From the UHGV virus genome UHGV-2167857: a stretch of DNA of 27,935 bases; one strand, 5' to 3'. The stretch comes from a virus. This document shows, piece by piece, positions 15,657 to 23,243 of the stretch. How positions within the stretch are numbered: position 1 is the stretch's first letter; each line of letters opens with the position of its first letter. The translations under genes and the position numbers were made by a program. The notes under the pieces are model-generated. The model searched no databases, was not told the origin of the DNA, and saw nothing but the letters and a program-made list of their open reading frames with translations.

Positions 15657-16007
15657 TTAAAGCCCCATCGCAACAGCCAGGCAGACCGCTGCAACAATCA
15701 GTGCACGGCGGATTAACGCAGCAGAAAACACCAGGTGAAGGCCGGTCTGTACCGGGAAACGCCCTTCAGCCATCAGCCTGTCGTCATGTTTCAGGTACTG
15801 ACCGGGACGGGCTTTGGGGAAGAGCGAACGGTCAAGCCAGTAACCCAGCACTGCTGCCAGCGTGATGAGTGCCAGCTTGTAGATCACAACAGGCAGCTGC
15901 TGTGGTGAGACCAGAGCGATGGTGCCCAGCAACAGCACTGAGGTCAGCAGCCAGCCGCTGAGGCGAGGTTTTTTAACAGGGGGAATGAATTTTTTCAGGT
16001 TTTTCAT
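15657..16007 (-). CDS. Putative holin (three predicted TM helices)
   Basis: First gene of the late operon, directly upstream of the endolysin. Start placed at ATG 16007 with AAGGAG upstream; three hydrophobic helices. Confidence 0.55.
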   Translation of the reverse strand: MKNLKKFIPPVKKPRLSGWLLTSVLLLGTIALVSPQQLPVVIYKLALITLAAVLGYWLDRSLFPKARPGQYLKHDDRLMAEGRFPVQTGLHLVFSAALIRRALIVAAVCLAVAMGL

Positions 16008-16137
16008 GTGTGTCTCCTTATCTGGTGGAGACAGCATCACAAATACAGGGCGCGAAGGATTTTAAAGCGCGTTAAGAGAGCCGGGGATACGGGATGTGCA
16101 GGATAAACGATGAATTATTCACAGAGGAGAATACGAT
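16008..16137. promoter_or_regulatory. Divergent intergenic region: probable late-operon promoter (leftward) and promoter of the P-loop gene (rightward)
   Basis: 130-bp non-coding gap between two divergent genes with good SDs; the only sizeable non-coding DNA at the head of the late operon. Confidence 0.35.
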
Positions 16138-16614
16138 ATGACGCACACACTGAATCCGGTCATCACTGTCACTGTGTCCGGTCCTGTGGGCAGCGGTAAA
16201 AGTTACGTACTGGCGCGGATAGAAGAGATGGTGAAACAGGAACTCGGAAACAGCGTCATTGTCGATGCTGCTGACGTGGAGAATGAGCGCCGTATGAATG
16301 GCGAAGATCTGACGACCTGGCAGAAGCCACGGGGTGGCACAGTGATCAGGCTAGAGGAATACACGGGACAGGGCCTGTTGTCATACGGCGAGGAGCGTAT
16401 CTGTCGGACGAATGAGCTGCTGGATGTTATATGCCCCACGGGCCGGCAACCCTGGATACTGCCCGATGCACTGCATGCCACCATTGCGGCACTGATGACA
16501 GTTTACGATCAGGAGCTGCTCATGAAGGAGTTACGTAAACTCACCGGTCAGCCAACAGAATGTTGTTCGTCTCCGAAGTACGGCAAACAGGAAAACGCCC
16601 CGGATAATCCTTAA
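16138..16614 (+). CDS. Small P-loop protein of unknown function
   Basis: Strong SD (GAGGAG) before the ATG; Walker A-like GPVGSGKS at residues 15-22, then a hhhhD-like stretch SVIVDAAD about 20 residues later. Confidence 0.5.
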   Translation: MTHTLNPVITVTVSGPVGSGKSYVLARIEEMVKQELGNSVIVDAADVENERRMNGEDLTTWQKPRGGTVIRLEEYTGQGLLSYGEERICRTNELLDVICPTGRQPWILPDALHATIAALMTVYDQELLMKELRKLTGQPTECCSSPKYGKQENAPDNP

Positions 16615-16620
16615 GATACC

Positions 16621-16652
16621 TCCTGAACAGAAACAGCCCTGAAGGGCTGCAC
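16621..16652 (-). terminator. Probable intrinsic terminator of the repressor operon
   Basis: Perfect 6-bp GC-rich stem (CAGCCC / GGGCTG, plus 16634-16649) with 4-nt loop, 2 nt after the 16652 stop, followed on the minus strand by UUUCUGUUC. Confidence 0.45.
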
Positions 16653-17239
16653 TAAAAAAAGAAGTGTATTATTGCCCAAACAGCTATAACGATGATTCCC
16701 AGCCCAAGAGCCGATTCTAACTTATCTTTGGCAGTCATTTTTACTGTTGTAGCGGGCGCAGGTAAGTCTTGCTGCTGTGGATTTTCTGTTAGTTGTTTAC
16801 GAGAAGAAACATCGCCCCTATTAGTTTGCTTCATGTTGATTACAGATGCGTTATGGGCATTATCAGCAGCAATTGACTGAAGTTTTACAAAAGTTTTTGA
16901 ATCTGTTTTAGCCAGAAGTAACCTATTTCCCGTAAACATTGCCTTAAAAGTGATAGTTTTTTTCGTCTTGTCCGCCGCACCAAGCAAACCTCCAATGACC
17001 AACCCTGCACCACCAAAGATTAATCCACCAAGCAAACCTGCGCCTGCCGCCTTACCTATACGGCTTTCCTCTTCACTATCCGCAAGTTCAATCGATAAAA
17101 GCTCTTCTTTCAGATTTAATACAATATTTTCAGGAAAGCCTTGTTTTGGTTTTTTGGCAAACACGATGGTACCGAACCCCATGCTTGCCCACCCTTTAGG
17201 AAAACTTCCTGCGATAACCTGAATCCCTGCCATGTTCAT
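16652..17239 (-). CDS. Glycine-zipper membrane protein, unknown function (cargo)
   Basis: Central motif GAGLLGGLIFGGAGLVIGGLLGA and C-terminal TM (LGLGIIVIAVWAIIHFFF); AT-rich; last gene of the repressor transcription unit. Confidence 0.5.
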   Translation of the reverse strand: MNMAGIQVIAGSFPKGWASMGFGTIVFAKKPKQGFPENIVLNLKEELLSIELADSEEESRIGKAAGAGLLGGLIFGGAGLVIGGLLGAADKTKKTITFKAMFTGNRLLLAKTDSKTFVKLQSIAADNAHNASVINMKQTNRGDVSSRKQLTENPQQQDLPAPATTVKMTAKDKLESALGLGIIVIAVWAIIHFFF

Positions 17240-17323
17240 CACCTTTTACATTAAAATTTCAGAACGCAGCATGATGCCGCCTTTGTCTTTTTTCTGATCC
17301 CATGGTAATTCAGCTGTTATTTT

Positions 17324-18310
17324 CTATTTAAGAATAAAACGGTATTTACTGTCAGGAGTGCTTTGCTGATCAAGTAGCAGTGAACGACATGGAGCAGTCA
17401 AAACCCGAGCATAACTACCATCAGGGCTTATGTTAATGTAACAAACCTTGCCCTTAACACTATAATTTTCGGGGACGGATGCCTTTGCTGATACAGTAAA
17501 TTTAAGGGTATGCCAGCCCGTTTTTTGCTTGTAGCTTGAAACCGAATGGAAATCATCTGAGTACTTATTTAACCCTGGAAACATGCTGCGCAGTGCGGGG
17601 ATGGAATCTTCTATTATTTTATTGTTGGTTTTAATGTTAAAAACGCTGGTTTCAGTAGAAGCTACTGCTTTGGCATTTCCCCATTTACCAGCGAACACAA
17701 TCATTCCCACGAAAAATATTGCTACAAGAACTAACACTCCCCCCAACACTACTACATGAGGCTTCCGGCTTCTGGTTGGTACAGTTGCGACTGATTTTGC
17801 ACCGCTTTCCGATGGAGGTGATAGAGTTTTACTCTCATCACGAATATTCAGCAGATCATCAAAATAACCAAACACAGCCTGCAACTGCTCTTTGTCTAGG
17901 CCTTTAAGATGGGTTGTACCGAAATGCTTCAGACAGTATCTGTCACGGTCAAGACGATACCCAGGGTCAGTAAGCGCCATTATTTTGCTGACCAGAAGAT
18001 TACAGTCCTTCATATTCTGGATCTGTTGTGCATATCTCTGAAGGATCTCAACCGCACCATGATAATCAGCCGCAGTCATTTCATTAACTGTTTTGGTATT
18101 AAGTTTCGTGTGGATCGTCATCCATAGCTCGCGCTTACTTTCCCCCAGATCAACCAATTCATCCATCAATCTGTGTAAATCGCGTTTTTGCAGCAACGAA
18201 ATTGGTTGCTGGGCCGAAGGAAGTATGTCAGCAGAATAGTTATGAATGGTAACATCACCGCTGACAACGTTACCCACATCCCCGTTAACTGTTTGCTTCT
18301 CTTTACTCAT
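17324..18310 (-). CDS. Bitopic membrane protein, unknown function (cargo; N-in/C-out predicted)
   Basis: 328 aa; start ATGA-overlaps the repressor stop. N-terminal soluble domain of about 175 aa, one TM (HVVVLGGVLVLVAIFFVGMIVFAGKW) with basic residues before it, then a C-terminal domain of about 125 aa; AT-rich. Confidence 0.5.
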   Translation of the reverse strand: MSKEKQTVNGDVGNVVSGDVTIHNYSADILPSAQQPISLLQKRDLHRLMDELVDLGESKRELWMTIHTKLNTKTVNEMTAADYHGAVEILQRYAQQIQNMKDCNLLVSKIMALTDPGYRLDRDRYCLKHFGTTHLKGLDKEQLQAVFGYFDDLLNIRDESKTLSPPSESGAKSVATVPTRSRKPHVVVLGGVLVLVAIFFVGMIVFAGKWGNAKAVASTETSVFNIKTNNKIIEDSIPALRSMFPGLNKYSDDFHSVSSYKQKTGWHTLKFTVSAKASVPENYSVKGKVCYINISPDGSYARVLTAPCRSLLLDQQSTPDSKYRFILK

Positions 18311-18768
18311 CTTCTCTTGGTATTTTTGTTCATTATTCCACCTGTTCCTATGGTTACGTTACCTTTGATAACATTCCCCAGAACATCTCCATGAATAACC
18401 TGTTCCGCCCGTTCTCTGGAGGAGCCAGTAGTCAAGGCCGACAAAACTGAACCTTTGACCTGTAATGGTGCCTGCCGGTAGTGCTGCAGTAACTCCATTT
18501 CATCACGTGATAAAGTTATACCTGATGACTCCCCGGTAAGAATGAACTGTACATTGGCCCCAATTCTTGCAAAGGCTGCAAGTAACTCACCTCCGGGAAC
18601 AGCAACCCCTCGTTCATATTTCCCCCACATTTCTCTTGAAACGCCACAAAGGGCTGCTACTTCAGCCTGCTTGAGTGATAACCGCGAACGCTCAGCTTTG
18701 AACCGCGACGCGCAAAGAGAATCAAAATTCACATAAACCTCATTGACAATGAGAACAATAGTTCTCAT
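18307..18768 (-). CDS. Prophage repressor, HTH (XRE/Cro-C1-type)
   Basis: N-terminal HTH (LSLKQAEVAALCGVSREMWGKYERG); divergent from the early operon across about 50 bp. True start may be an internal GTG. Confidence 0.7.
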   Translation of the reverse strand: MRTIVLIVNEVYVNFDSLCASRFKAERSRLSLKQAEVAALCGVSREMWGKYERGVAVPGGELLAAFARIGANVQFILTGESSGITLSRDEMELLQHYRQAPLQVKGSVLSALTTGSSRERAEQVIHGDVLGNVIKGNVTIGTGGIMNKNTKRR

Positions 18769-22076: not shown

Positions 22077-23243
22077 ATGCTGGTACTGAAGCAGCAACTG
22101 AAAGAGGCCCGTATTCCACAGGCGGTGGTGGCGAGAGCTGTCGATGTTTCTGAGGCCACGCTGGCCCAGATTGTGAATCATAACGCGTGGCCCCGCACCA
22201 GCCCCGGAGAAGTGCGCCGGCGTCTTGCGTCCTGGCTGGAAAGTCAGGGGATTGATACAACGAAGAGTTTTGATGCTGTACAGGGCGCGGCCACGCCCCG
22301 TACAGCGGGTACCACAGATAAAACGAGCCTCAGTGAGGAAGAGAATATGTTACTCAAAAAACAGGTGTTATTTCCAGCAACCAAAAAAGCGTTTGGTCTT
22401 TTCCGTGACCCGTTCGCCGACGAAGCCATGCAGGGTTCTGATGATGTGTTCACCACCCCGGACATTCGCTACGTGCGTGAGGCGCTGTACCAGACAGCCC
22501 GTCATGGTGGGTTTATGGCCGTCATCGGTGAGTCCGGTGCGGGTAAATCCACGCTGCGCCGCGACCTGACTGAACGTATCAACCGCGAGAATGCGCCGGT
22601 AATTGTTATCGAGCCATACATCATCGCTATGGAAGACAACGATGTGAAAGGGAAAACCCTGAAGGCAGCAGCTATTGCCGAAGCCATTATCAGTACCATC
22701 GCACCACTGGAAAGCATCAGACGCAGTCAGGACGCCCGTTTTCGCCAGTTGCATCGCGTCCTGAAAGACAGCAGCCAGGCGGGGTTCAGCCACGTTCTGG
22801 TGATTGAGGAGGCCCACAGTCTGCCCATTCCGACACTGAAACACCTCAAACGCTTTTTTGAGCTGGAGTCCGGTTTCAAAAAACTGCTGTCCATCGTGCT
22901 GATTGGCCAGCCGGAACTGGCGACAAAACTGTCTGAACGCAATATGGAAGTCCGTGAAGTCGTTCAGCGCTGTGAGGTGGTCGAACTTCTGCCTCTGGAC
23001 AATAACCTTGAAGAGTTTCTGACGTTCAAACTGCAACGGGCCGGTAAACAACTGACGGACATTATGGACGCCAGCGCAGTGGATGCCATACGTGCCCGCC
23101 TGAGCAATCCGGGAAGTCATCGTAAAAATATGGTCAGCCTGCTGTATCCGCTGGCCGTCAGTAACCTGGTAATAGCCGCCATGAATCTGGCCGCTGAAAT
23201 CGGGGTTCCACAGGTCAACGCTGACGTTGTCAAAGGGGTTTAA
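22077..23243 (+). CDS. Transposition ATPase (Mu B-type target-DNA activator)
   Basis: Start at ATG 22077 with GGAGG upstream. N-terminal HTH-like segment, Walker A GESGAGKST, Walker B-like HVLVIEEAH. Confidence 0.8.
   Translation: MLVLKQQLKEARIPQAVVARAVDVSEATLAQIVNHNAWPRTSPGEVRRRLASWLESQGIDTTKSFDAVQGAATPRTAGTTDKTSLSEEENMLLKKQVLFPATKKAFGLFRDPFADEAMQGSDDVFTTPDIRYVREALYQTARHGGFMAVIGESGAGKSTLRRDLTERINRENAPVIVIEPYIIAMEDNDVKGKTLKAAAIAEAIISTIAPLESIRRSQDARFRQLHRVLKDSSQAGFSHVLVIEEAHSLPIPTLKHLKRFFELESGFKKLLSIVLIGQPELATKLSERNMEVREVVQRCEVVELLPLDNNLEEFLTFKLQRAGKQLTDIMDASAVDAIRARLSNPGSHRKNMVSLLYPLAVSNLVIAAMNLAAEIGVPQVNADVVKGV

Follow-up and report, generated by a model that had tools for sequence, protein, structure and literature searches.

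The window analysed here, a stretch of 27,935 nucleotides, is a BcepMu-like transposable prophage of E. coli. Between its holin gene and its repressor region lies a small plus-strand gene whose product carries a Walker A motif, and the question raised by this locus is what so short a P-loop protein does, and whether it acts together with the genes beside it. The original prediction described it as an orphan, possibly a small nucleotide kinase or a toxin-type kinase, which may work with the adjacent membrane proteins. The features of the locus are as follows.

15657–16007: holin gene (phrog_1528), divergent from the P-loop gene
16008–16137: divergent control region of 130 bp, between the holin start and the P-loop gene
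16057–16074: invariant block GGATTTTAAAGCGCGTTA, inside the divergent region
16123–16129, plus strand: Shine-Dalgarno sequence AGAGGAG, read from the sequence, 8 nt 5' of the ATG
16138–16614, plus strand: P-loop gene, a complete ORF with an ATG start, 158 codons for amino acids and a stop
16604–16614: recombination junction, where similarity to PhiKM (242-aa allele) breaks
16633–16650, minus strand: GC-rich hairpin CAGCCC-TTCA-GGGCTG followed by a T-rich run, terminator-like, serving the convergent cargo operon
16652–17242, minus strand: gene convergent with the P-loop gene
17324–18310, minus strand: gene convergent with the P-loop gene
18307–18768, minus strand: HTH gene convergent with the P-loop gene

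The P-loop gene is the sole credible plus-strand gene to the left of the repressor region. The plus-strand ORFs at 32–1066 are nested in an ORF on the minus strand that has more than 734 codons, exits the left end of the window, and is probably the tape measure gene. This means that the layout originally described, with a single plus-strand gene divergent from the holin gene and convergent with minus-strand genes, was borne out. The GC content falls from about 0.53–0.61 to 0.41–0.45 between about 16.6 kb and 19.4 kb. In BcepMu, a variable accessory region (gp18–gp20) is located between the repressor gp17 and the holin gp21 (PMC2628397). The P-loop gene holds the equivalent position in this "moron" region of BcepMu-like phages (BcepMu gp18–gp20; KS10 genes 11–12), the content of which varies in both cases. 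However, KS10 genes 11–12 share the strand of the holin gene and encode unrelated hypothetical proteins, whereas the P-loop gene is divergent from the holin gene. The published BcepMu and KS10 papers cover the region but do not mention a P-loop gene, and a literature search by protein accession and PHROG identifier gave no match.

That the ORF is a real gene was confirmed by its strong Shine-Dalgarno sequence, which is also kept in 4 other aligned E. coli alleles, by its conservation, by its match to phrog_3787 (E 2.1e-107; residues 1–157 on profile positions 1–157 of 242) and by dN/dS values of 0.1–0.4 against five other alleles. When the modules described below were considered separately among six alleles, dN/dS was 0.07–0.30 for the N module and 0.20–0.42 for the M module. 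As judged from these substitution ratios, the gene is under purifying selection. The 242-position profile of phrog_3787, a family of unknown function in PHROGs, corresponds to the PhiKM-type allele, and the 158-aa protein is without its last 85 positions. In RefSeq the 158-aa protein is WP_000149906.1, labelled "ABC transporter ATPase". The 130-bp region upstream of the gene is strongly conserved, including in the Klebsiella phage KP12, which is without the P-loop gene; no sigma-70-like promoter was found on either strand of it, even at 8/12 matches. It should be mentioned that for the P-loop gene the downstream hairpin does not have the canonical form of a terminator, because on the plus strand an A-run comes after it.

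The protein consists of two modules and a short tail, with the following features.

16153–16359, plus strand: N module, residues 6–74, the 69-residue "mini P-loop"
16180–16203, plus strand: Walker A motif GPVGSGKS, residues 15–22
16273–16290, plus strand: motif 2, D46-V-E-N-E50-R51 ([DE]-L-x-x-E-[RK]), directly after strand 2 and overlapping the end of SVIVDAAD
16339–16359, plus strand: strand 3, GTVIRLEE, ending in E74; AF2 strand at residues 69–74
16384–16557, plus strand: M module, residues 83–140, three predicted helices
16558–16611, plus strand: tail of 18 residues, the TGQPTECCSSPKYGKQENAPDNP region, with pLDDT below 50 at residues 142–157

The elements of the N module follow each other in the order strand 1, Walker A, helix 1, strand 2, the [DE]LxxER loop, W..P, and strand 3 ending in Glu. 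The pattern G-x4-G-K-[ST] occurs twice in the window (six frames, 55,866 codons), once in the P-loop gene and once, at 22527–22550, in the Mu B-like ATPase gene. In 40 homologues with identity down to about 25%, G20 and K21 are invariant, so that the Walker A motif is no chance match; it is genuine, as had been predicted, and family-wide. In the homologue alignment G15, S22, I28, E50, and E74 are each conserved at 90% or more.

The original prediction had taken SVIVDAAD (residues 39–46) as the only Walker B-like stretch and found it unusually close to the P-loop. The spacing stands, since D43 is 22 residues past K21. The assignment as Walker B does not: D43 is conserved in close relatives only, whereas position 46, the first residue of motif 2, is acidic in most of 32 diverse members. 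The best candidate for a Walker B-like or Q-loop-like element is strand 3, in which the hydrophobic VIRLEE closes with the near-invariant E74, in a placement relative to the P-loop that was modelled at a pLDDT of 60. Stand-alone members of 70 aa stop at this same strand, ending "...VLTE".

The Walker A motif lies between strand 1 and helix 1 (AF2 strand at residues 8–13, helix at residues 21–39), as in a canonical P-loop. The canonical core, an alpha/beta sandwich of at least five strands and about 140 residues or more, is not present in the N module. The protein falls short of a complete P-loop NTPase fold, which justifies the earlier unease over the Walker B spacing, and the N module represents a 69-residue fragment of the P-loop fold. 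With the 40-sequence alignment, AF2 gave a mean pLDDT of 60 and a pTM of 0.36, with best blocks at 72–77. In the N module the two strands (8–13 and 69–74) and the helix (21–39) were modelled at a pLDDT of about 65–77, and in the M module the helices at 85–98, 110–122, and 125–136 reached 65–73; strand 2 was not predicted consistently. From a shallow alignment the pLDDT was only 47. Foldseek against the PDB gave no match below E 0.1, and a fold search of BFVD returned nothing but one unnamed member of the family, 72 aa long, and weak fragments resembling kinases.

At the level of sequence, the closest resemblance of the N domain is to the Walker A segment of ABC ATPases. In hhalign the probabilities were 94% for MalK and 90% for HisP, each as a single sequence over 40 columns; for the other P-loop proteins Ras and RecA they were 66% and 19%. 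In a profile search of the PDB the best matches were ABC transporters, with the Walker A region aligned to "G.v.IDG.d". The order of strand, GxxGxGKS, helix, and "G.I.IDG.D"-like strand in the nucleotide-binding domains (NBDs) of ABC proteins (MalK, HisP; ABC_tran) is thus also found in the N domain. However, an ABC NBD has about 200 residues, of which the N domain spans only about 45–70. The LSGGQ signature, Walker B (hhhhDE), D-loop, and H-loop are absent from both the 158-aa sequence and the 247-aa alleles, and the P-loop gene is without the partner genes of a transporter. The Pfam model ABC_tran gave 13.6 bits against a cut-off of 25, over profile positions 7–51 of 137 only. Scans of Pfam, NCBIfam, and PADLOC with the protein and 32 diverse N domains gave only sub-threshold Walker A matches, scattered over the P-loop clan.

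The N module is the only part of the protein conserved beyond enterobacterial BcepMu-like prophages. Its 69-position profile matched 85 proteins, and in a profile search of 1.84 billion representatives there were 67 matches, which have residues 1–75 alone in common and lengths from 73 to 364 aa. It also occurs as stand-alone proteins of 70–90 aa in unrelated phages, and distant stand-alone proteins likewise match phrog_3787 through the N domain. Two copies of a 71-aa Acinetobacter member have 6 nucleotide differences, all of them synonymous, and lie in prophages with unrelated flanks. The N module is a self-sufficient genetic unit, a cassette that moves among unrelated phages. The 141-aa E. 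coli forms and the 244–255-aa Salmonella forms have the M module as their C-terminal cap (local HMM search), and in P0066 and P0068 it is joined to a different N-terminus. In Salmonella, Citrobacter, and E. coli, a conserved N domain is combined with hypervariable C-terminal modules.

The gene is no orphan, contrary to its first description. At its fixed site, divergent from the holin gene, it was found in 570 of 5426 complete E. coli genomes (about 10%), and it has distant relatives in other phages. In a tblastn search against 50,697 phage records, the 158-aa protein was found in the Escherichia phage PhiKM only. Homology to the 242/247-aa alleles stops near codon 155–157. Similarity to another 158-aa allele (L019) stops exactly at the stop codon, and the DNA beyond is unrelated. 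The position by the lysis operon is fixed, while the 3' end and everything downstream are swapped by recombination, and alleles of the gene adjoin at least four other cargo sets. This means that the P-loop gene is not a partner of the adjacent membrane genes, which were present in 127 of the same 5426 genomes; the suggestion that the two work together is not upheld.

The setting of the gene allows three readings, each of which is opposed by part of the same data. One is that the gene belongs to a module for prophage defence or exclusion, together with the HTH protein and the two membrane proteins, of 196 and 328 aa, encoded to its right; this is very improbable. The genes are adjacent and convergent, and the lysogen probably expresses the low-GC cargo together with the repressor-like gene; but the inheritance is separate, the neighbours elsewhere are others, and the terminator-like hairpin stands between genes on opposite strands. 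PADLOC-DB gave no significant defence match (best SngB, E 0.007, 13.4 bits, P-loop only). A lysis or late-gene accessory factor, expressed from the divergent region and tuning the timing of the holin operon or packaging, would fit the fixed position and the conserved intergenic DNA, as well as the Yersinia member directly after a lysis cassette and several members just upstream of HNH and small terminase genes. The phage KP12 nevertheless has the intergenic block and the same lysis genes without the P-loop gene, other members are in early or nucleotide-metabolism regions, and no DNA-binding motif was detected in the protein, so that this role is considered improbable. The same judgement, an outside chance, applies to a decaying remnant, in which case the low-GC cargo would have cut a longer gene, either the 242/247-aa form or an ancestral ABC ATPase, and left a functionless 5' end. 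Homology to the PhiKM 242-aa allele does end 3–10 nt before the stop, at the GC break, and fragmentary or frameshifted copies are numerous (P0016–P0027). More than 22 contigs retain an allele of 182 aa from which an in-frame deletion has taken strand 3 and half of the M module, so the constraint on an intact N domain is not absolute. On the other side, three clusters of the 158-aa form with 83–97% identity all end in ...PDNP, the 97% cluster alone having 369 member sequences, and dN/dS is below 0.45 in both modules. One of these clusters has different downstream DNA with the identical stop, by which a truncation artefact of cargo insertion was ruled out. The 141-aa E. coli form and several Salmonella forms stop right after the M module, which indicates that N plus M is a complete architecture and that the 90-residue C extension is optional.

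Two other readings start from the Walker A motif itself. A small nucleotide kinase or zeta-like toxin kinase would phosphorylate a nucleotide or a cell-wall precursor and would perhaps be toxic on induction. Some databases label relatives "uridine kinase" or "thymidylate/uridylate kinase", and a lytic Vibrio phage member sits between thymidylate synthase and DHFR. P-loop nucleoside and nucleotide kinases have an NMP-binding region and a LID, but both are missing from the 69-residue unit. In hhalign Tmk scored 10.9% and Adk 6.5% over 26 columns each, covering the P-loop only; the NCBIfam guanylate and uridine kinase models gave about 12–13 bits against cut-offs of 180–263, and Zeta_toxin 12.6 bits against 22.3 over residues 11–47 alone. 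A toxin is further opposed by the lack of a conserved antitoxin-like neighbour and by stable carriage in 10% of E. coli genomes. The nearby HTH protein gave a PezA-like match (E 0.0099) far under the cut-off. No kinase or toxin family was matched by the profile and structure comparisons, and the kinase function originally proposed is held to be very improbable. Somewhat less doubtful, though still unlikely, is a decoy of ABC ATPases. Here the Walker A fragment would dock on the signature face of a dimeric ABC-type ATPase and block productive head-to-tail dimerisation, which would make it an anti-defence protein; the proposed targets are a defence ATPase of the OLD, Gabija, PARIS, Septu, Lamassu, or SMC type or a repair ATPase, picked by the variable modules. 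The resemblance to the ABC segment from Walker A through the next strand, with every motif from the other half of the ABC site missing, is consistent with this. So are the restriction of the family to phages, in accessory regions beside Acb2/Tad1-like, Lar, and Dam genes, and the constant N domain with its hypervariable C-terminal modules. The reading is purely inferential, however. The hhalign matches behind it each cover 40 columns of one sequence, and the gene is in a lysogeny-side accessory region of the prophage, outside the early operon.

The reading we prefer is that of a soluble, non-structural accessory module of E. coli Bcepmuvirus prophages, which binds phosphate or nucleotide, needs oligomerisation or a partner, and is built of two shuffled modules. 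We hold it with roughly even confidence. In this model, the ligand held by the P-loop would bear phosphate, as an NTP, an NDP, or nucleic acid. Since most of the NTPase core is missing from the domain, catalysis or tight binding would require homo-oligomerisation or docking on a partner protein. The residues E74, E50, and R51 are candidates for metal, water, or finger residues, and the helical and C-terminal modules may confer partner specificity. Engineered minimal P-loop prototypes are not known to bind phosphate ligands except as oligomers. Like the N module, these proteins are very small beta-(P-loop)-alpha units, and the family profile matched two of them, 9jix ("de novo designed ATPase PL2x4_2"; residues 6–71, E 2e-4) and 6c2u ("phosphate-loop protein"; residues 9–44, E 5e-4), in a similarity that amounts essentially to the consensus P-loop. 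Both are laboratory constructs, whereas the N module belongs to a natural, selected phage gene. A more specific form of the idea, which we put forward tentatively and think rather unlikely, is that the N module is a natural, selected, stand-alone mini P-loop of about 70 residues, in the order beta-(Walker A)-alpha-beta-beta, which functions only in oligomeric form or when it completes or caps the ATP site of a second protein. It could then inhibit ABC-type defence or repair ATPases or sequester a phosphate ligand.

The location of the family in accessory hot spots suggests that its role might be in phage–host or phage–phage conflict, and not in replication, packaging, or morphogenesis. Lysis, nin, or HNH genes flank stand-alone members on one side and the small terminase gene on the other. 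Acb2/Tad1-hairpin genes are near two members and Lar genes near two, this proximity to anti-defence genes being a matter of anecdotal cases. Across eight contexts no conserved partner gene was found, and a weak 19-residue similarity was seen among convergent or divergent genes of 106–133 aa. The Vibrio member between thymidylate synthase and DHFR points to nucleotide metabolism instead of a conflict role.

For E. coli prophages, these results mean that the RefSeq label "ABC transporter ATPase", given to a gene present in about one tenth of the sequenced strains, is wrong, since the protein consists of a truncated P-loop and a swappable helical module, and that a tempting link of the gene to the neighbouring membrane genes is removed. 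The family offers a compact target of 70–160 aa for asking whether a Walker A loop can work outside a full NTPase core, and whether phages turn such fragments on host ATPases. If the reading as a mini P-loop is true, the N module would provide the engineered minimal P-loop prototypes with their first natural counterpart, and the family would represent a new class of anti-defence modules with swappable targeting domains.

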